Assembly (NCBI GenBank): GCA_049414425.1
Contig: JBMSAO010000037.1
Span: 1,731-65,730, forward strand
Reading direction: 5' to 3'
Origin: Desulfurococcaceae archaeon
GTDB lineage: Archaea > Thermoproteota > Thermoprotei_A > Sulfolobales > Desulfurococcaceae
DNA: 64,000 nt
Position numbers and translations under genes: made by a program. Positions 2,689 through 40,435 of this stretch are shown here, in pieces. A model generated the notes under the pieces. It was not told the origin of the DNA. It did no database searches and was given only the letters and a program-made list of their open reading frames with translations. Numbering within the stretch: the stretch's first letter is position 1; every line of letters begins with the position of its first letter.

Positions 2689-3363
2689 TTACTCCGAGAA
2701 GAGGCGTTTTCGCAGACGGAGTAGCCAGCGAATAAAGTTAAGCCTCGACTTAAAACCACTCTTAATAGACTCTACCTCCCTGCTCAACTCCTCAATTCTT
2801 CTACTAGTAGCACTCTCTAGTCTCTCTACTTCATATCCGAGCCTCGCGACCTCCTCTCTAACAATAATTCTCATCTTCTCGAGCAGACTGGTAACGAGAA
2901 CTCTGTCAATGTACTCAGCTAGAAAACTCATGGGGATAGCTCTGGAGACGTTTTGCGCTACTGAAATTAGCATTTCTATACTTGATAGTCTAGACTTGAC
3001 ATCTTCTACGCTAAACTTACCTCCCTGAGAGCACAGTGTATTTAGAGCCCACGCTGTATCCCACGAGGAGAGAACCCAGTCTCCGAGTATTCTCGAGAGC
3101 TTCTCGACAGCTCTAATAAGGACCTCTTCAGACCACTCGCCACTCTTCTCAGCACTCTCAATGATGTCTCTTAGATTAAAGTGCACTACAAGGCCCTTCA
3201 CGGCCTCTTCTACAGCTCCGTACAGCTTTCCACAAGCTTGTGGCAAGTCTCTCTCAATAAGCCCTCTACCCTCTTCAAAATACCTTAAAGCTAGTTCAAA
3301 GTAGGGAGCGGCGTAAACTCTGAAAACACTAGGACTCCTCGACTCTGGCGCACTAGCACTCAC
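2689..3363 (-). CDS. PaREP1-like (HEPN-superfamily-like) helical protein with C-terminal coiled coil
   Basis: N-terminal pattern LALRYFEEGRGLIERDLPQACGKLYGAVEEAVKGL ... SWDTAWALNTL resembles the archaeal PaREP1 family recalled from memory. The C-terminal ~70 aa are heptad-like. Confidence 0.45.
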   Translation of the reverse strand: MSASAPESRSPSVFRVYAAPYFELALRYFEEGRGLIERDLPQACGKLYGAVEEAVKGLVVHFNLRDIIESAEKSGEWSEEVLIRAVEKLSRILGDWVLSSWDTAWALNTLCSQGGKFSVEDVKSRLSSIEMLISVAQNVSRAIPMSFLAEYIDRVLVTSLLEKMRIIVREEVARLGYEVERLESATSRRIEELSREVESIKSGFKSRLNFIRWLLRLRKRLFSE

Positions 3364-3555: not shown

Positions 3556-4476
3556 TTGAGAGAGCGCTTTAGAAGAGCACTTGGAGTATTTACTGGGAAG
3601 TACGCTAAACTAGTAGTATTAGGACTAGTGTTCTTAGCTGGACTAGTAGTTGTAGTTGCAGACGGGATCACAGAGTACACTTGGATATACCCGCTGAATA
3701 GACCCCGCGAGGTCACGGCTCTCTACGCTAAGAGCTCTACTAGTATAGCGATAATTAACGCGGAGACTGGAGAGAGAAATCTCGTAGTTTTAAGCGGCGT
3801 CTTAACGAGTAGTGTTCTGAGTGAGTGCTCTACGTGCTACGCTGTAGTATTAGCTAGTGGAGTAAACTTCTACACTCTGCTCTTCACACTCATACTCGCA
3901 GTGTTAACGGGACTAGTAGTGTACACTGAGAGTAGAATTAAACCACTAGTTGTAGTAGTGCTGGCGCTCTTCACACTAGCCATTGTAGCTATGTACCTGT
4001 ATGTTAGAGCAGGAGAGTCTGCTGGATACAATGTAGTGAACTACTATGATTTAATAACTCAAGATAAACTGAGCTACAAGGGCTTTCAGCGAGTCATCCT
4101 CGCTGAGGATAATAAAGTTAAAATACTCCAAGGAGGCTTCCACGCGTACAGTGACTACGCGGGGGAGCTCTCACTAATTAGTATTAGAGTGCGCTATAGG
4201 GCTAGTGACGCAATTATACTAGTAAATACTAGTAGAGGGGCCCTAGAAGTGCAAAACAGCACTACACTGTACGCTACTGGTAGAGTAGAGTTACTAGTAC
4301 TCCCCGGGGAAGGGGGGGTTAATGTCGAAGTAGAGTACTATAGACTAGAATTCGCAGAGAAGACCACACAAGCACCACTATACTTCACGATAACTCTACT
4401 CTCAGTAATAGCTCAGTGCACTCTAGTAACAGTGAGGTCTGCGAGAGTACTGAGGAGGAAGCACCAGGTAGCGTAA
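3556..4476 (+). CDS. Hypothetical multi-pass membrane protein
   Basis: Several long hydrophobic segments (LVVLGLVFLAGLVVVVA, FYTLLFTLILAVLTGLVVY, LVVVVLALFTLAIVAMYLYV, LYFTITLLSVIAQCTLV). No recognisable motifs. Confidence 0.55.
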   Translation: MRERFRRALGVFTGKYAKLVVLGLVFLAGLVVVVADGITEYTWIYPLNRPREVTALYAKSSTSIAIINAETGERNLVVLSGVLTSSVLSECSTCYAVVLASGVNFYTLLFTLILAVLTGLVVYTESRIKPLVVVVLALFTLAIVAMYLYVRAGESAGYNVVNYYDLITQDKLSYKGFQRVILAEDNKVKILQGGFHAYSDYAGELSLISIRVRYRASDAIILVNTSRGALEVQNSTTLYATGRVELLVLPGEGGVNVEVEYYRLEFAEKTTQAPLYFTITLLSVIAQCTLVTVRSARVLRRKHQVA

Positions 4477-4516: not shown

Positions 4517-4626
4517 GCCGCCGTAGCTCAGCCCGGTAGAGCGCCGGACTCATACGGGTACAGGTGTTGACACGGGGTCGGCCCTGAGGGATCCGGTCGT
4601 CCCGGGTTCAAATCCCGGCGGCGGCA
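4517..4626 (+). tRNA. tRNA with CAU anticodon (elongator Met or Ile2) with 36-nt intron
   Basis: Hand-folded cloverleaf: acceptor GCCGCCG/CGGCGGC, D arm GCTC-AGCCCGGTA-GAGC, anticodon stem CCGGA/TCCGG, loop CTCATA[intron 4555-4590]A, T arm CCGGG-TTCAAAT-CCCGG, discriminator A. G1:C72 means it is not the initiator. Confidence 0.85.
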
Positions 4627-4689: not shown

Positions 4690-5733
4690 GTGAGCGAGGT
4701 GCCTAGCTTCGCGTATGGTGTTGTAAAAGCTCTAGATGTGAGAGAGAGGAGTATTCACGAGTTACTTCTAGAGATGAGTAATGTGTCTTTTCAGGGCAGG
4801 GCGCTGGGGGAGGCGTACAGAATACTAATAGATATGTTTAGCGACCCCGACAGCACTATTTTCCTCGGATTAGCCGGGTCGATGAGCACTGCTGGCATGT
4901 GGAGAATTATTAAGTGGCTTGTAGAGGAGAGATATGTCGACGTAGTAGTCTCAACGGGCGCTATTATAAGTGAGGACGTATACGAGGCTATGGGGTTTAA
5001 GTACTACAAGGTACACCCCTGTATAGACGACGCTATACTACTAAAGTACAAGTATGATAGGTTTTACGACACAGTGGCGAGTGAGCTGGACTACAGGAAA
5101 ATGGAGCTGTTAATTAAAGACTTCGTCGAGACTCTACCGGATAACAGCGTGTACTCTACCGCGGAGTTCCTCTACGAGTTTGGTAAGTACTTGAACGAGA
5201 AGGGCGTTGACAGCATTGTGGCAGCCGCGTACAGGGCTAGAGTGCCAGTATTCTCTCCAGCACTAGTTGACAGTGCTTATGGCATGGCACTACTAATGGC
5301 GTACAGGAGAGGTGAGAGAGTAGTACTCGACATGGTGAGAGACTTCTACCAGCTGGTGGAAATAGGTAGGCGTGCCAAGAAGCTCTCAGCAATATACATT
5401 GGTGGAGGGGTGCCGAAGGACTACGTAAACTTAGTAACAGTAGCACAGACACTAATAGCAGAGTACGAAGAGGGCATACACGACTACTACAAGAGCTTCG
5501 AGTACATAGTTCAGTTCACAACAGATATGCCACAGTGGGGAGGTCTCAGCGGGGCGACACTAGAAGAGGCAGTGAGCTGGGGTAAAGTAGCGGCACACGC
5601 TAAGAAAAAAACGGTGCACGTAGACGCGACAATAGCACTGCCACTCATAGCGCACGGACTAAAAACAGGAAGAGTAAAGAGAAGTAGGTCGCAGGAAACA
5701 CTAGACGTAGTAGTACACGCTAAGAAGAACTAG
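4690..5733 (+). CDS. dys: Deoxyhypusine synthase
   Basis: Family-typical stretches GRALGEAYRIL, IFLGLAGSMSTAGMW, VDVVVSTGAIISEDVYEA, GGGVPKDY. Length 347 aa. Confidence 0.85.
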   Translation: MSEVPSFAYGVVKALDVRERSIHELLLEMSNVSFQGRALGEAYRILIDMFSDPDSTIFLGLAGSMSTAGMWRIIKWLVEERYVDVVVSTGAIISEDVYEAMGFKYYKVHPCIDDAILLKYKYDRFYDTVASELDYRKMELLIKDFVETLPDNSVYSTAEFLYEFGKYLNEKGVDSIVAAAYRARVPVFSPALVDSAYGMALLMAYRRGERVVLDMVRDFYQLVEIGRRAKKLSAIYIGGGVPKDYVNLVTVAQTLIAEYEEGIHDYYKSFEYIVQFTTDMPQWGGLSGATLEEAVSWGKVAAHAKKKTVHVDATIALPLIAHGLKTGRVKRSRSQETLDVVVHAKKN

Positions 5734-6310
5734 AAGCATCGGGCTCAGACTCCTCAAGATCATTAATTAAGATGTAGGTAAGAGGCTCATTGAGATATCT
5801 ATGAAACATCAGTAAGAATAGTTGAGAAAGCAAGACAAATACAATACGCTCATACATAGAGGGGTCTTTATATTTTAAACACTTGAGGTCTGCGGCTTTA
5901 ACTCTCTCAGCTGTAATAACTCTCATAGTTTCGAAAAACTCCGAGAATTTATTTATTAATTCTCCCATGTCTTCTCTGAGGCGGTTTAGTTCACTAGCTA
6001 ATATAAATGGCAAGTTCAACCTGTAGTAAACCTCAACCCTAAATCTCTTAGGATGCTCAGTAGCTTCTACTACGACACCGGCTTCTTTAAGCTTTCTCAA
6101 GTGATCATGTACTGTAGAGGGGGCGAGATCGAGCGCAGCCGATAGTTCTTTTAGCGTTAAGGGGCCGCGTGTAGCGAGTAAGTGCACAATAGCCCGTCTC
6201 GCCCGTGTCTCTAGTACACTAGTAACTCCAGTTACGGGTCCGTGACTACCTACAAACACTTTCCTACCATAGTACTCAACTGAGTGTTTCTTGTCTAAAG
6301 ACACTTTCAC
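5720..6310 (-). CDS. ArsR-family winged-helix transcriptional regulator with ~100-aa C-terminal extension
   Basis: RRAIVHLLATRGPLTLKELSAALDLAPSTVHDHLRKLKEAGVVV is a typical ArsR/SmtB HTH. Divergent from the peptide/rSAM operon. Confidence 0.7.
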   Translation of the reverse strand: MKVSLDKKHSVEYYGRKVFVGSHGPVTGVTSVLETRARRAIVHLLATRGPLTLKELSAALDLAPSTVHDHLRKLKEAGVVVEATEHPKRFRVEVYYRLNLPFILASELNRLREDMGELINKFSEFFETMRVITAERVKAADLKCLKYKDPSMYERIVFVLLSQLFLLMFHRYLNEPLTYILINDLEESEPDASSSS

Positions 6311-6378
6311 ACCTTTTCTTTAATTCTTCGTTTTTCCTAAAATAGCTTATTAGGGGTTTAGGTATACGGCTTTTAGCT

Positions 6379-6418
6379 TTTTCGGAAATACACGAAAAGT
6401 TTAAACACCCTTAAAATT
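6379..6418. promoter_or_regulatory. Candidate operator (inverted repeat) plus TATA-like boxes for the peptide/rSAM operon
   Basis: TTTTCG (6379-6384) and CGAAAA (6393-6398) form a 6-bp inverted repeat with an 8-nt spacer. TTTAAA at 6400-6405 and TTAAAATT at 6411-6418. GGAGG at 6445-6449 precedes the GTG at 6460. Confidence 0.35.
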
Positions 6419-6459
6419 ACTATCAAATTTAGAAAATAACGTTTGGAGGGTCTGTCGCT

Positions 6460-6561
6460 GTGAAGAAGGTGAAAGTTGTAGTTCTCGAGAAGGGCTTTCT
6501 CAAAGTGAGAGAGCCCAACTTCTGCGCTAAATTGTGCAGAACTGTCTGCTCTGGTTATTAA
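6460..6561 (+). CDS. Candidate RiPP precursor peptide, 33 aa (not in ORF track)
   Basis: GTG start, stop TAA at 6559-6561. Translation: (M)KKVKVVVLEKGFLKVREPNFCAKLCRTVCSGY. In-frame TAG at 6430-6432 limits any upstream extension. GGAGG sits 11-15 nt upstream. The ORF ends 27 nt before the rSAM gene. Confidence 0.6.
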   Translation: MKKVKVVVLEKGFLKVREPNFCAKLCRTVCSGY

Positions 6562-6588
6562 ATAGCTAACTAATCAGTGGTGACATAA

Positions 6589-7911
6589 GTGAAGCTCTCC
6601 AAATTCAATATGTTTTTTAATCTCGACTCAGACTTCCTCGTTGCTTATAACTCTCTCTACGACTCCCTCGTGCTTATTGATAGAGAGATGGGTGAAGCTT
6701 TAAAGCAGGGCGATTTATCTCGTGTTTTAAGTGATGGTGAGGTTTTAAAGAGTCTCCTTGCAACTGGAATTCTAGTTTACGACGATTTCGACGAAGACTC
6801 TCACTTAAAGAGACTACGCGAATCCACTTTTTCGGGGAACTCCATATCTATATTCCTCTCGATTACGAGTAAGTGCAATCTTGCATGCAAATACTGCTAT
6901 CAGTCTACGAGGCCTCAAATCGAAGGTGAGGACTTAACACTCGAGAAGTGGAGAGTTCTCTACAATCACATAGTGAAGAGAGTTGAGGAAGAGGCTAGAG
7001 TAGTCTCTATTGCACTCTACGGTGGCGAGCCTCTATTAAATCCACGCGTAGCTCTAAGTGTTATAAGAGATCTCGATAAGCTAACACAAGAGTACAGCGT
7101 TAAGAGCGAAGTAGGTCTTATAACTAATGGCACTATTTACAATAGCGACGTAGAGGAAATCTACGAGCGGGTAGCTGTCACGCAGATTACTATTGATAGC
7201 CCCAGAGAAGTTCACAATGCGAGGAGGCCCTTTAAAACCGGTGAGGGGAGTTTTGACGTCATTTTCACTAATTTGCTGAAAATCGTGGATAGACACGCTG
7301 GTAGAGTAAGTGTGAGAACTAATATTGACGAACACAACGTGGATTACGTGAGCGACTTTATTGACATGTTAGCTGACCTCGGCCTCCAGGACAAAATAGT
7401 TGCTCTCGACATAATGCCAGTGTACCCTGACCAGGCTACTAAGTACAAGCCGTTTAAAACACCTAAGAGCTACTCAGAGTACTTCGTAAACACGGCTAAG
7501 AAGTCAGCGGAACTACTAGAGTACGCTGTAGAGCGAGGATTTAAAATTGCTAAGATATTCGTTAAGGGGCCCTGTCTCTGCAAGTTTAAGTATGGTGTGA
7601 GTGTAGACGAGAAGTTAAATGTGTATATCTGCCCAGCTTACATATACGACACGCCATCAGGCTATATTGGCGGTGTGAGCGCGGACTGGGGCTTCAAGAT
7701 CAAAGAAGAAGTTACGCGGGACCCTCCCTGTGTCTACACGTATAAATACGGCCCTATATGCTATGGAGGCTGCGTGTACTTGAAGTCCAAGGGCATACCT
7801 ACTTGTCTACGCGTTCTCTACGGCGAGGACTACTTAGAGAGACTTGTACGTGCTTACGTTTTCTCCAGGTATCGCGAGGTGATCGAGCGTGAGAGAAATA
7901 GTAGCAGTTGA
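6589..7911 (+). CDS. Radical SAM enzyme with SPASM-like C-terminal domain; probable peptide maturase
   Basis: CNLACKYC (CX3CX2C) at 6874-6897 and GGEPLL. About 85 aa of N-terminal extension (FLVAYNSLYDSLVLIDREMGEAL...LLATGILV) resembling a PqqD-like RiPP recognition element. Seven C-terminal Cys including VDEKLNVYIC and PICYGGC. Confidence 0.8.
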   Translation: MKLSKFNMFFNLDSDFLVAYNSLYDSLVLIDREMGEALKQGDLSRVLSDGEVLKSLLATGILVYDDFDEDSHLKRLRESTFSGNSISIFLSITSKCNLACKYCYQSTRPQIEGEDLTLEKWRVLYNHIVKRVEEEARVVSIALYGGEPLLNPRVALSVIRDLDKLTQEYSVKSEVGLITNGTIYNSDVEEIYERVAVTQITIDSPREVHNARRPFKTGEGSFDVIFTNLLKIVDRHAGRVSVRTNIDEHNVDYVSDFIDMLADLGLQDKIVALDIMPVYPDQATKYKPFKTPKSYSEYFVNTAKKSAELLEYAVERGFKIAKIFVKGPCLCKFKYGVSVDEKLNVYICPAYIYDTPSGYIGGVSADWGFKIKEEVTRDPPCVYTYKYGPICYGGCVYLKSKGIPTCLRVLYGEDYLERLVRAYVFSRYREVIERERNSSS

Positions 7912-8784
7912 CAGCGTTACTAAAATATACCCCAATGGCGTGAGGGCAAATATAGACGTCTCACTACGAGCTTGTAGTGGCGAAGTAGTCTGTATTATGG
8001 GTCCTAACGGCGCGGGCAAGACGACTCTGATAAGGCAGATCACAGGTATACTAAAGCCTACGAGTGGTGCAGTGAGGGTTTTTGGGAGAGACCCCGTTAA
8101 ACACCACAACTACATTAAGAGGAGAATATCCTATACACCGCAACTCCCACTAACATACCCAGCACATAGAGTTATAGAAGTAGCGAAGTACGTAGCCGAG
8201 CTCTCTAATACTCCATTTGAGCGTGTAAGAGAAGTTTTAGAGCTACTGGGCTTGTGGAGTAGTAGAGATAACCTCGGGTACCAGCTGTCTTTAGGGCAGA
8301 GAAAACTCCTACTACTAGCACTAGCCCTAATTAAGGGTGGAGACCTCTTAATACTAGATGAGCCAACCGCGTTTCTAGACGTGTTTAAGAAGAAATTAGC
8401 GTGGAGTGCTCTACTATAAGAGAAGAGGAGAGGCAAGTCAATGCTCATTGTAAGTCACGATACTGAAGAAGTGCGAAGACTCTGTGATAGAGTATACATT
8501 ATGGTCGCCGGGAGAGTAGCAGGTAAACTAGACTTACTTAGCGACATTAATGGGGTGTCGAGGTCAAAGTGTACTGTGAGAGGCCTAGTGAGCTAATTCA
8601 CTTATTTAAGCGAGGTAATGTGAAAGTCTACGATGAACTACTAGTAGTAGAGTACACGCGCCTCCTCGACGCTCTCGAAGACTTGGAGAACCTGGCTGTA
8701 AATGGCGTGAATAGAGATATTCGCGTTACGCTAGAATACCCCTCAGTAGAGTACGTTCTAGAATCTCTACTCGCTAAGAGGTGA
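7889..8784 (+). pseudogene. ABC transporter ATP-binding protein, disrupted by an in-frame stop and a frameshift
   Basis: Walker A GPNGAGKTT, signature LSLGQRK, Walker B LLILDEPTAFLD (7889-8416). In-frame TAA at 8417-8419. The same frame continues EKRRGKSMLIVSHDTEEVRRLCDRVYIM (H-loop) to the stop at 8594-8596. The C-terminal domain (VEVKVYCERPSEL...LEYPSVEYVLESLL) lies in another frame from 8551 to 8784. The frame change is at the G-run 8552-8555. Confidence 0.7.
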
Positions 8785-9536
8785 GTGGCGTGGGGTTCTC
8801 TACACTAACAAAGTCTACTGTATTCTCGCTGAAGACGTATAGACTGTACTGGCCTAATCTCATATCAATCTGCGTCTTAATGCCAATTACGTACTTAGTA
8901 GTGATTTTCGCTACTGTTCCAGGTGATATCGAGGCTCTAAAAGCGGCGCTAGTAGGCTATATTGTAATGACCGGGTTTAACACGCTATTCTACATATCAG
9001 CGCTATACATAGCTAATACTTTTGAAGAACAAGTACTAGAGTCCTACGTGCTACTGCCAGTACCATTCTGGGAGGTCATCTTGTCTACAATACTAGCTCA
9101 GGTGTTAGTGAGTATTCCACCACTAGTAGTAGGACTTGTAATGCTGTTCCTCATCTCTAGTACAATTAACATACTCCTACTAGTAGCTGGACTGGCAGTT
9201 ATACTAGTAATTTACAATTCGCTGGGCATACTACTCGGCGCGAAAGTGAGGAATATGATAAAGCTAAATCCACTACTCGTAGCACTAATGATGATTACTA
9301 TAATAGCTACACCCGTGTACTACAGGCTACTCTACGTGAGCGAGCCGTACAGAACTCTACTACTACTAAACCCGCTAACACACGTAGTAGTTGTACTGAG
9401 AGCCTCTGTGGGGGTCTACGAGGGCTTTCCAGTGGAGTTCTCACTACTCTACTCCGCGTTGATCTCAGCACTACTTCTCCTTCTCACCTGGTGGAGGCTG
9501 CGTGGAGGTGCTTTTACAGTTCTCGAGAAGAAGTGA
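8781..9536 (+). CDS. ABC-2-type transporter permease
   Basis: About 6 hydrophobic helices, 251 aa. 4-nt overlap with the end of the ATPase C-terminal domain reading frame. Confidence 0.7.
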   Translation: MSGVGFSTLTKSTVFSLKTYRLYWPNLISICVLMPITYLVVIFATVPGDIEALKAALVGYIVMTGFNTLFYISALYIANTFEEQVLESYVLLPVPFWEVILSTILAQVLVSIPPLVVGLVMLFLISSTINILLLVAGLAVILVIYNSLGILLGAKVRNMIKLNPLLVALMMITIIATPVYYRLLYVSEPYRTLLLLNPLTHVVVVLRASVGVYEGFPVEFSLLYSALISALLLLLTWWRLRGGAFTVLEKK

Positions 9537-21455: not shown

Positions 21456-21554
21456 GGCCCGGGCCGGGATTTGAACCCGGGACCTCCGGGTACCCGCCCC
21501 CATCATCTCGGGGGTCCACAGCCCGGCGCTCTACCAGGCTGAGCTACCCGCGCC
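21456..21554 (-). tRNA. tRNA-His (GUG) with 24-nt intron and encoded G-1
   Basis: Reverse complement: G(-1)GCGCGGG, D arm GCTC-AGCCTGGTA-GAGC, anticodon stem CCGGG/CCCGG, loop CTGTGG[intron 21492-21515]A, T arm CCGGG-TTCAAAT-CCCGG, 3' acceptor CCCGGGC, discriminator C. Confidence 0.85.
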
Positions 21555-39156: not shown

Positions 39157-40347
39157 ATGCCGCTCTACGTAGATTACTCAAAGTACCCATTTGTCTTTCC
39201 ACGAGAAGACCTAAAAGTAATGTACGTAGACAGTCCGGGTGTTATTGCTAGTCGAGATGAGGTTTTGAGGAGTAAGTTGAGTTCTCTAGTGAAGAGAGTA
39301 GTAGAAGCTGGAGAAGTCCCCTCTGAGCTGTGTTCTAGTAGTGAGGAGTGCGTTCTACTATACTACGCGGTACTAGACGTGGCGAAGGCTGCGGGAGACA
39401 AGTGGTTTCAAAACAGAGTAGCTCTCGCTTACTCCAAATACGCGTCTCAGTACATGGAGAGAGAAGACTCCGAGAAGTTGCTACTACTTGGAAGGAGGCT
39501 GGGTTTAGACGTCTTCTTAGCCGCGAAGGGGTCAAATACCCCTAAACTACCAGTCATATCTAAGAGTGGTAAAAGCATTAGCTTTATCCCCTGCGAGTTC
39601 GCTGTCTCAATAACTAGTTATTTAAGAGTAGTCTCTAAGAGGCTTGTACACGACCCTCTTTACGGTCTTACTAATAACACTGTGAGTAACGGGTACGTGT
39701 ACTTGGATAAAATGACATACCAGAGAGTCCTAGAAGAGGCTATTTTGAATAGAGTTCTGGAAGCTACAGAAGAGTCCACACCTCTCACAGAACTCAGCGA
39801 GTTTGCAGAACTAGTTAACGAGGTGAAGAGAGCTCTAGAGGAGAGTAGAGGAGGGGGCGAGGCTACTACTAGTAGAGTAGTAGTGTCTGAGAAGAGTACT
39901 TTAAGAGAGCCTGAGACTGGAGAGCTACCAGTAATAGAGAGTCTTTTCCCCCCGTGTATAGCAAGAATAATTGAGATCTTGAAGTCGGGTGGAAACCCTA
40001 GTCACGTAGAGAGATTTAACTTAGCGGCTTTTCTCGGCAGTATAGGGCTCGGCGTCGAGGCTGTGTTGGAGTACTTCAAGACGTCGGCCGACTTCAATGA
40101 GAAAATTGCGAGATATCAAATTGAACACATACTGGGTCTCAGGGGTAATAAGAAGAAGTACTTACCATATAGTTGCGAGAGAATGAGAGCTACCGGAATC
40201 TGCCCTGTTCAAGAGCAGTGTAAAGGCGGGAGAAACCCGGTAGCTGTGTATAGATACGCGGTGAGGACCAGGGTGAGGAGTGAAAAGAGCTCAACTAGTA
40301 GAGGAAGTAGAGACGACGATGCTAGTGAAGCCGCCGGCGGGATTTGA
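39157..40347 (+). CDS. priL: DNA primase large subunit PriL
   Basis: FPPCIARIIEILKSGGNPSHVERFNLAAFLGSIG, YQIEHILG, YLPYSCERMRATGICP (Fe-S domain cysteines). Confidence 0.8.
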   Translation: MPLYVDYSKYPFVFPREDLKVMYVDSPGVIASRDEVLRSKLSSLVKRVVEAGEVPSELCSSSEECVLLYYAVLDVAKAAGDKWFQNRVALAYSKYASQYMEREDSEKLLLLGRRLGLDVFLAAKGSNTPKLPVISKSGKSISFIPCEFAVSITSYLRVVSKRLVHDPLYGLTNNTVSNGYVYLDKMTYQRVLEEAILNRVLEATEESTPLTELSEFAELVNEVKRALEESRGGGEATTSRVVVSEKSTLREPETGELPVIESLFPPCIARIIEILKSGGNPSHVERFNLAAFLGSIGLGVEAVLEYFKTSADFNEKIARYQIEHILGLRGNKKKYLPYSCERMRATGICPVQEQCKGGRNPVAVYRYAVRTRVRSEKSSTSRGSRDDDASEAAGGI

Positions 40348-40435
40348 ACCCGCGACCACCGGCTATCTCCACGGGCCTCTTTACTCTAGAATCCGCTTAC
40401 AAGGCCGGCGCTCTACCGGGCTGAGCTACGGCGGC
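40329..40435 (-). tRNA. tRNA-Thr (UGU) with 33-nt intron
   Basis: Reverse complement: GCCGCCG/CGGCGGC acceptor, D arm GCTC-AGCCCGGTA-GAGC, anticodon stem CCGGC/GCCGG, loop CTTGTA[intron 40365-40397]A, T arm GCGGG-TTCAAAT-CCCGC, discriminator T. Confidence 0.85.

Follow-up and report, generated by a model that had tools for sequence, protein, structure and literature searches.

A conserved small gene upstream of a radical-SAM/SPASM gene in Desulfurococcaceae: a probable precursor of a Cys-rich modified peptide

Introduction

The maturation of Cys-rich peptides by radical S-adenosylmethionine (rSAM) enzymes of the SPASM type is, in general, a well-known kind of system. Many rSAM gene clusters for ribosomally synthesised peptides with post-translational modifications (RiPPs) have been predicted in archaea, while the characterised examples are limited to a few haloarchaeal lanthipeptides (2025 survey, PMC12144867). 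The locus described here lies in a stretch of 64,000 nucleotides from a Desulfurococcaceae archaeon (contig JBMSAO010000037.1, positions 1,731 to 65,730; hereafter the window). It consists of a small open reading frame (ORF) at positions 6460–6561, whose product carries three Cys, and of an rSAM/SPASM gene which begins 27 nt downstream of it. The ORF is likely to be a RiPP precursor gene with the neighbouring enzyme as its maturase, of thioether type.

Among described systems, the SCIFF system of Clostridium thermocellum (CteA/CteB) shows the closest likeness, as in both a short Cys-rich precursor is found beside an enzyme composed of a RiPP recognition element (RRE), an rSAM core and a SPASM domain (predicted in the window enzyme). 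However, the two enzymes share only ~18% identity, the model of the SCIFF maturase (TIGR03974) reaches 78 bits where 425 is the cutoff, and the window precursor has three Cys where SCIFF has six, possesses a leader of its own (LEKG...EPNFC) and has no NCBIfam peptide model. CefA/CefB, the geopeptide system and TIGR04463, all bioinformatically defined and uncharacterised, likewise involve small Cys-peptide maturases, and their alignments reach the N terminus of the window enzyme; the Cys period is four here, in contrast to five in the 'Cys-every-fifth' peptides of CefA/CefB. PapB is a SPASM thioether synthase which acts on regularly spaced Cys within the CX3D repeats of PapA (freyrasin), whereas the core of the window peptide (CAKLCRTVCSGY) is without any acidic residue and the enzyme scores under the PapB cutoff. 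The CXXX-repeat system (TIGR04115) shares the Cys period of four residues, though the window peptide has only three Cys. Finally, the donors of thuricin CD (Trn-alpha/Trn-beta), namely Cys5, Cys9 and Cys13, have the same C-x3-C-x3-C spacing (PMC8172795), and its cluster also contains genes for an rSAM/SPASM maturase and an ABC transporter. In thuricin CD each acceptor (positions 21, 25, and 28) follows the donors at a distance of 8–23 residues, which gives a nested hairpin. No precursor sequence relationship to the window peptide is detectable. A hairpin of this type was rejected for the window peptide and its relatives because the tail after the last Cys, at 3–8 residues, is too short.

Results and Discussion

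The small ORF and its signals

A preliminary description of the window, made from its letters only, had proposed the 33-residue ORF as a precursor peptide gene. Its coordinates were verified (Table 1), with translation giving (M)KKVKVVVLEKGFLKVREPNFCAKLCRTVCSGY and the three Cys at residues 22, 26, and 30. An in-frame TAG at 6430–6432 was also found where it had been reported, making the GTG at 6460 the earliest possible start after it, and the GGAGG noted ahead of the ORF is indeed present 10 nt before this GTG. The peptide sequence agrees with the suggested division, in which an N-terminal part rich in Lys and Val and strand-like is followed by a C-terminal part rich in Cys, and a leader/core boundary is predicted at residues 21/22.

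The element CGAAAAGTTTAAAC upstream is nearly identical in 5/5 aligned close relatives, while the intergenic DNA flanking it diverges. It is a candidate promoter of a precursor/rSAM operon, the assignment as a B recognition element (BRE) with TATA box resting on the known archaeal consensus. A sigma-70 promoter scan is not applicable to an archaeon. An Rfam scan of positions 6250–6650 matched no RNA family, and a reading of this region as an RNA element was dropped on that account. A weak hairpin at 6536–6549 falls within the coding sequence and is accounted for by the Cys-Arg-Thr-Val-Cys codons.

The Cys pattern by itself is of little diagnostic value, as translating the window in six frames gives C-x3-C-x3-C three times, compared with a mean of 2.6 in mononucleotide shuffles. 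As the motif occurs at chance frequency, the case for the gene has to rest on context and conservation.

Conservation in the Desulfurococcaceae clade

The window enzyme has ~20 cluster-level relatives with 43–96% identity, all of them from hot-spring metagenomes or Desulfurococcaceae metagenome-assembled genomes (MAGs), with the next matches at ≤33%. A scan of genome contigs with a generic rSAM pattern gave, among the matches listed, only distant ones with ≤31% identity. The DNA around 14 of the enzyme relatives was compared for an upstream small ORF, and homologous ORFs were found at the equivalent place in at least 13 related loci; none of the loci with an available upstream region is without one. 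In most of these (L161, L166–170, L172–176, L082, L083, and L087) it lies 17–36 nt before the rSAM start, while in L162 it overlaps the called start. The preliminary description had warned that such a gene is easily missed, and this holds for the relatives too, since gene callers annotated it in the contigs of only a few of them. Examples of the peptides from close relatives are MKKVKVIVLEKATLKVREPNFCVGLCRTVCTGYFINPQ, MKVKTRIIVLEKSKINVREPNFCGPYCSLVCGGLIIAPD, MKSKPKVIVLERGMTNARESNFCGPFCRLVCTGYYILPN, and MKNPRVIVLERGVTNIKEPNFCVTFCRTVCALVIKKP; the lineages of L163 and L171 have divergent yet recognisable versions (MKSKVVVLERAAVDPNGICWTLCKIFCWLQVF and MVVIVLEQRGDTKPAGCIIYCSLCFIYGRDSGA). Of 14 distinct loci examined in the clade, 13 keep C22, C26, and C30 without change, the exception being the L163–L165 contigs (rSAM P0009), where the spacing is C-x3-C-x2-C.

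Codon-level conservation was assessed by a Nei-Gojobori count over 25 codons, from VVVLE to the third Cys. The window and L161 differ by 12 synonymous and seven non-synonymous changes (proportions pS 0.68 and pN 0.12), and L162 and L082 by 12 synonymous and two non-synonymous changes. Across the clade pS is 0.5–1.0, meaning that synonymous divergence is saturated, whereas pN is 0.02–0.36. The peptide sequence, and not the DNA alone, is therefore under selection, and the ORF is a conserved gene under purifying selection. The proposal of a RiPP precursor gains support from this, from the rSAM/SPASM neighbour and from the conservation of the ORF together with the enzyme.

Positions 3900–4670 of L175, whose enzyme belongs to the same 90% cluster as that of the window, contain a tandem duplication of promoter and precursor. 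The first precursor copy has a different core with four Cys (...EPNFCVTLCGNVCIVCDGFTRTPE). A 111-aa minus-strand gene called across this copy by the Joint Genome Institute (JGI) is probably spurious.

A wider family with an EPNFC motif

The same kind of ORF precedes rSAM enzymes with 30–35% identity to that of the window (L084–L091), often as tandem copies, of which there are three in L090 and four in L091, besides the two of L175. The family consensus is hhhLE(K/R/E)G, followed by 5–7 residues, EP(N/S)FC and a short tail with one to three further Cys, which outside the Desulfurococcaceae mostly contains F-C-(N/S)-P-(I/V). The window peptide fits this description with VVVLEKG, FLKVR and EPNFC, then C26 and C30, and with an rSAM/SPASM gene directly downstream. 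L9, E10, E18, P19, N20, F21, and C22 are invariant or nearly so across the family, the first six of them being invariant or ≥90% conserved in at least one of the alignments A2 to A4.

The exact four-residue Cys period, to which the preliminary description had drawn attention, did not hold up as a defining feature at this level. It is kept only in most of the Desulfurococcaceae clade, with distant members showing C-x3-C-x2-C, C-x2-C-x2-C, C-x4-C or F-C-x1-3-F-C-N-P. LE(K/R/E)G and EPNFC are the truly conserved elements of the family.

A profile search of 5.8 billion proteins, using a peptide alignment with a 43-aa first row, gave 45 called proteins at E ≤ 10, of which 41 had E ≤ 0.001, and a search of 1.84 billion proteins gave 52 representative clusters at E ≤ 0.001. 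Peptides of Hungatella hathewayi and Clostridium botulinum are among the called members, and the linkage of peptide and enzyme extends across two domains of life. None of 16 family peptides matched Pfam or NCBIfam, even at E ≤ 10, and no description of the family was found in the searchable literature. The EPNFC peptides are a clearly delimited new precursor family with its own enzyme clade, outside Pfam and NCBIfam and spanning hyperthermophilic archaea and Clostridia. Besides Desulfurococcaceae and Clostridia, its carriers include other archaea.

The Clo7bot system was considered for the C. botulinum member P0150 and discarded, as no curated model matches and the family enzymes score 108–126 bits against a cutoff of 600. 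Two divergent loci were also observed. Three tandem precursors in L092 (3571–3923; MEMEVFEEGSMGMDCVFCNPVC...) are without EPNF and have an hhhEEG leader and an FCNPV core, which suggests that the superfamily reaches beyond the EPNFC motif. In L177, a Brockarchaeota MAG, a divergent relative of the precursor (2846–3001; MKFVPLQKGSTPEPGTRPLTCCGSNFHFGTYCTPVKGPTQ...) ends exactly at the start of the rSAM gene.

The radical-SAM/SPASM enzyme

The window enzyme is an exact-sequence match to MFZ8782851.1, a protein of a metagenome-assembled Desulfurococcaceae archaeon, which makes a hyperthermophilic crenarchaeon the source of the window. Its CX3CX2C motif, CNLACKYC at 6874–6897, is invariant in 21 family sequences, and the family has eight conserved C-terminal Cys (C329, C331, C348, C381, C385, C391, C395, and C406), of which the window enzyme retains seven. 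In SPASM domains 7–8 Cys serve two auxiliary [4Fe-4S] clusters. The SPASM motif of the family is C-x3-C-x5-C-x3-C, as opposed to the canonical C-x2-C-x5-C-x3-C, and the fold matches the SPASM enzymes CteB, SuiB and anSME. Pfam scans of the isolated N- and C-terminal parts of the enzyme matched neither PqqD/RRE nor SPASM (PF13186), for which reason the N-terminal RRE-like domain and the SPASM domain are assigned from the structure model.

The AlphaFold2 model, built on the alignment of 21 family sequences, has a predicted local distance difference test score (pLDDT) of 87.7 and a predicted template modelling score (pTM) of 0.87, and comprises an N-terminal module, an rSAM barrel and a C-terminal Cys-rich domain. 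The N-terminal module (residues ~1–80, pLDDT ~90) is made up of strands 7–11, 16–21, and 26–31 and helices 32–39, 44–47, and 50–59. Three strands and three helices are the topology of the CteB and TigE RREs (PMC10878394). Foldseek against the PDB placed CteB first (5WHY/5WGG, E 7e-18, TM 0.64–0.67, ~450 columns), with SuiB, anSME, TigE, ChlB and SkfB among the further matches, and CteB is also the best PDB sequence match (E 4e-14). The preliminary description had suggested that the leader could dock on an RRE; the model does begin with an RRE-type module and matches CteB over its full length, while the docking itself is proposed by analogy.

The nearest curated families of the enzyme are all Cys-peptide maturases. 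The highest NCBIfam scores were those of CefB 'Cys-every-fifth' (NF038107, 151.5 bits against a cutoff of 600), the geopeptide maturase (TIGR04280, 151.5 against 400) and TIGR04463 (147.7 against 525), ahead of Clo7bot (125.7 against 600), PapB (NF047865, 99.4 against 340) and the SCIFF maturase. CefB, geopeptide and TIGR04463 are likewise on top for the enzymes of six other loci (five with EPNFC precursors, and L092), ahead of PapB and Clo7bot. As all of these scores are far below the cutoffs, the system is best described as a sister of the Cys-peptide maturase families and a member of none.

Lesions in the window copy

The stop codon of the window ORF corresponds to TAC (Tyr) in L176, which is a sibling assembly, and in L174 and L175, and to TTC (Phe) in L161. 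In view of the TAC in L176 and L174, the window product is a 37-aa peptide cut short by four residues; the L176 and L174 peptides end with ...CSGYYIAN or ...CSGYYIAD, and the 37-aa form is MKKVKVVVLEKGFLKVREPNFCVKLCRTVCSGYYIAN. Codons of the lost tail remain behind the stop (Table 1), where the DNA of L176 is identical apart from the C>A change. The lost residues are part of a hydrophobic segment conserved in the clade, (Y/L/F)(Y/I)I-x-P-(D/Q/N).

The enzyme carries a change as well. Codon 7741–7743 (TAT) encodes Tyr385, at a position which is Cys in 20/20 other clusters and in 9 of the 11 members of the same cluster which were read, P0130 and P0131 being the other two. Tyr385 is common to the window, P0130/L176 and P0131 (three assemblies), and its presence in two further assemblies marks it as a real lineage trait. 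The residue is the second Cys position of the SPASM motif. In SPASM domains auxiliary cluster II is bound by the corresponding motif through its first three Cys, and non-Cys cluster ligands are found elsewhere in SPASM enzymes, namely Asp in PqqE and Tyr at auxiliary cluster I in TigE (PMC10878394). By analogy, Cys385 is a predicted ligand of auxiliary cluster II.

The gene for the ABC transporter ATP-binding protein which follows the enzyme contains a stop (GAA>TAA at 8417–8419) and, near 8553–8556, a run of G which is shorter by 1 nt. Both are also present in L176, an independent ENA assembly, and the gene is a pseudogene. Since two other lineages have retained precursor and enzyme although they possess no ABC genes, the loss of the ATPase alone is not decisive. 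Taken with the loss of the tail and the change of Cys385, however, the lesions point to a system which is probably impaired in the window genome, and the cluster may be on its way to loss in this lineage.

Proposed maturation and its alternatives

The maturation which would follow from a thioether-type system is modelled on characterised relatives, and this applies to the docking of the leader, the thioether chemistry, the acceptor residues, the removal of the leader and export alike. The leader (KVVVLEKG...) would dock as a beta-strand on the RRE-like domain of the enzyme, and the core peptide would be threaded into the rSAM barrel. Cleavage of SAM would yield a 5'-deoxyadenosyl radical which abstracts a hydrogen from an acceptor carbon of the core, and a Cys thiolate, possibly while bound to auxiliary cluster I, would then form the S–C bond, with the auxiliary clusters taking up an electron. 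In this way the thiols of Cys22, Cys26, and Cys30 could give up to three thioether rings of sactionine or ranthionine type. The ABC ATPase and ABC-2 permease may export the product or protect the producer.

Several points weigh against this scheme. The thioether chemistry is extrapolated from CteB-like relatives with <20% identity, because both peptide and enzyme fall outside every curated family, and SPASM enzymes which act on Cys peptides can perform other chemistry. The module lacks a protease gene. Few residues follow the last Cys, as described above, and neither Asp nor Glu stands at i+4 in the core, unlike in PapB substrates. E-P-N-F-C, the most conserved residues of the peptide, match no known donor/acceptor pair. 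L171 and L172/L173 are without ABC genes, so that export by this transporter is not obligatory, and in the window lineage the lesions may mean that the system does not work. The short tail, the missing i+4 acid and protease and the EPNFC motif together make another modification a serious alternative.

An rSAM RiPP of some other kind, with a Cys-derived heterocycle, formylglycine, an epimerised residue or a C–C or C–O cross-link at the Asn or Phe of EPNFC, is accordingly to be kept in view as a possible, if distinctly less likely, reading. SbtM of Geobacter, for instance, forms a thio(seleno)oxazole from Cys or Sec of a small peptide. The enzyme falls under the cutoff of every curated thioether synthase family, its structural neighbours include enzymes with other chemistry (SuiB, C–C bond formation; anSME, Cys oxidation; TigE, cyclopropanation), and the top-conserved E, P, N, F and first Cys offer no characterised pair. 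Against this, the thioether synthase CteB is the best match in both sequence and structure, the closest curated families all act on Cys-rich peptides, and the Cys are the only feature of the core conserved throughout the close clade. Compatible with a thioether-forming family, and judged somewhat short of an even chance, is that the window copy in particular is a decaying, non-functional remnant without a mature product. The TAC>TAA change, which drops the conserved hydrophobic tail (YIAN) of L176 and L174, the replacement of a predicted cluster-binding Cys by Tyr only in the window lineage and the shared damage to the ATPase gene all speak in its favour. Yet neither the three Cys nor any part of the leader is damaged, the rSAM gene has in other respects kept its full length and shares 96% identity with intact relatives, the replacement of a Cys ligand is tolerated in other SPASM enzymes, and some relatives live without ABC genes. 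The precursor stop was moreover seen in a single MAG, and may reflect either a mistake in the consensus or a variant of low frequency.

The product need not be an exported antimicrobial. An intracellular housekeeping peptide, metal-binding or similar to a redox cofactor as in the pyrroloquinoline quinone (PQQ) and mycofactocin SPASM systems, would be in keeping with a locus which is single-copy and strictly syntenic in Desulfurococcaceae (suggesting vertical inheritance rather than a mobile bacteriocin island), with the persistence of precursor and rSAM gene in lineages without ABC genes, and with a neighbouring regulator of the ArsR/SmtB type, a family with many metal sensors. This is nonetheless improbable, since most loci, those of other phyla included, keep the ABC ATPase and ABC-2 permease (a fused exporter in Hungatella), the tandem diversified precursors of L090, L091, and L175 are typical of secreted RiPPs, and the hypervariable residues between the Cys fit a diversifying ecology better than a cofactor. 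The preliminary description had also pointed to the curated 'CXXX-repeat target' rSAM systems, and the three Cys at period four and the appearance of TIGR04115 among the enzyme's matches speak for them. Membership was not borne out and is extremely unlikely: TIGR04115 ranked 13th with 63.2 bits against a cutoff of 350 and aligned only to the generic core (residues 87–269), no NCBIfam peptide model matched at E ≤ 10, the peptide has just three Cys, and the four-residue period is lost in the wider family. As little can be said for a chance ORF, or for a regulatory upstream ORF with an irrelevant peptide sequence. The ORF is short and its Cys pattern alone is at chance frequency in the window, but its amino acids are conserved despite saturated synonymous divergence, its motifs are conserved across archaea and bacteria, and tandem copies have their own promoters. 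A broader and rather speculative view, which we consider unlikely in its full form, is of a cross-domain RiPP family whose Desulfurococcaceae branch is inherited vertically and would supply the first characterised archaeal peptide cross-linked by an rSAM enzyme, perhaps with a new cross-link at the invariant Asn-Phe-Cys and with a metal or redox role in the cell, governed by an ArsR-type regulator, in place of an antibiotic one.

Returning to the thioether-type precursor, secretion of the product is favoured by the presence of transporter genes, by precursors which are diversified in tandem and by the variability of the core residues, while the syntenic pattern and the ArsR-type neighbour leave room for a cellular metal or redox role. 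With its four genes, the locus is a concrete and compact archaeal system whose precursor motif is clearly defined, and it belongs to a family which standard gene callers and curated models miss almost entirely. It also offers natural allelic series, in which the peptide is either intact or truncated, residue 385 of the enzyme is Cys or Tyr, and the transporter is part of the cluster or missing from it, and the presence of homologues in culturable Clostridia makes the chemistry testable. A heat-stable cross-linked peptide from near-boiling organisms would be of interest for peptide engineering and for the study of archaeal competition and communication.

Neighbouring genes and locus order

The features of the locus are listed in Table 1. 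The gene order is deoxyhypusine synthase, helix-turn-helix (HTH) regulator, precursor, rSAM gene, (ABC genes), 116-aa ORF, PF0610-like regulator, pyrophosphatase and succinyl-CoA ligase in Desulfurococcaceae, where the locus is syntenic and occurs as a single copy. Precursor, rSAM gene, ABC ATPase and ABC-2 permease form a four-gene module, which Desulfurococcaceae share with L084, L088 and, among Brockarchaeota, the locus L177. The neighbours in L084 and L088 (HcyBio-CBS, Thi4, and a CCG-domain protein) look archaeal. In Hungatella a fused ABC exporter takes the place of the ATPase and permease pair.

Table 1. Coordinates of features at the locus (positions within the window).
Feature	Position	Strand	Remarks
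ArsR/HTH_20-type winged-helix regulator, 196 aa	5720..6310	-	Divergent; Pfam HTH_20 and HTH_5
BRE/TATA-like element CGAAAAGTTTAAAC	6393..6406	+	~55–65 nt upstream of start codon
Shine-Dalgarno-like GGAGG	6445..6449	+	Conserved as GGAGGG in L174, L175, and L176
Small ORF, putative precursor, 33 aa	6460..6561	+	GTG start to TAA 6559–6561; MKKVKVVVLEKGFLKVREPNFCAKLCRTVCSGY
Predicted leader part, residues 1–21, MKKVKVVVLEKGFLKVREPNF	6460..6522	+	Holds family motifs VLEKG and EPNF
Predicted Cys-rich core, residues 22–33, CAKLCRTVCSGY, and stop	6523..6561	+	TAA is a nonsense variant of TAC
Remnant tail codons ATA GCT AAC TAA (I-A-N-stop)	6562..6573	+	Ancestral stop 6571–6573; from DNA alignment with L176 and L174
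rSAM/SPASM peptide maturase (putative), 440 aa	6589..7911	+	Pfam Radical_SAM (E 1.9e-13) and Fer4_12
ABC transporter ATP-binding gene, disrupted	7889..8784	+	ORFs of 176, 51, and 71 aa together make up what is one intact protein of 298 aa in L174, L161, and L162
ABC-2 type permease, 251 aa, apparently intact	8781..9536	+	Pfam ABC2_membrane and ABC2_membrane_3; equal position in relatives
Conserved ORF of ~116 aa	9533..9883	+	After permease in L161, L162, L166, L169, L174, and L175

Neither Pfam nor NCBIfam gave a match to the ~116-aa ORF. In L172 and L173, which are without ABC genes, it lies directly after the rSAM gene and overlaps its end, and it may be an uncharacterised component of the module.

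The ArsR/HTH_20-type regulator adjoins the cluster in all syntenic Desulfurococcaceae loci with a visible upstream flank, and from this position it is a candidate regulator of the cluster. It is absent in L163, where the peptide module sits elsewhere. The regulator shows a weak likeness to the model of Phr, which regulates the heat-shock response in archaea, at 32 bits where the cutoff is 320. The deoxyhypusine synthase gene (4690–5733, plus strand) is convergent with it, the 3' ends of the two overlapping by 14 nt, and the pair is syntenic with the cluster throughout the clade.

Intron-containing tRNA genes are usual in Crenarchaeota. Rfam identified seven tRNA genes in the window, including those at 4517–4626, 21456–21553, and 40329–40435; several are 98–110 nt long and therefore probably contain introns.

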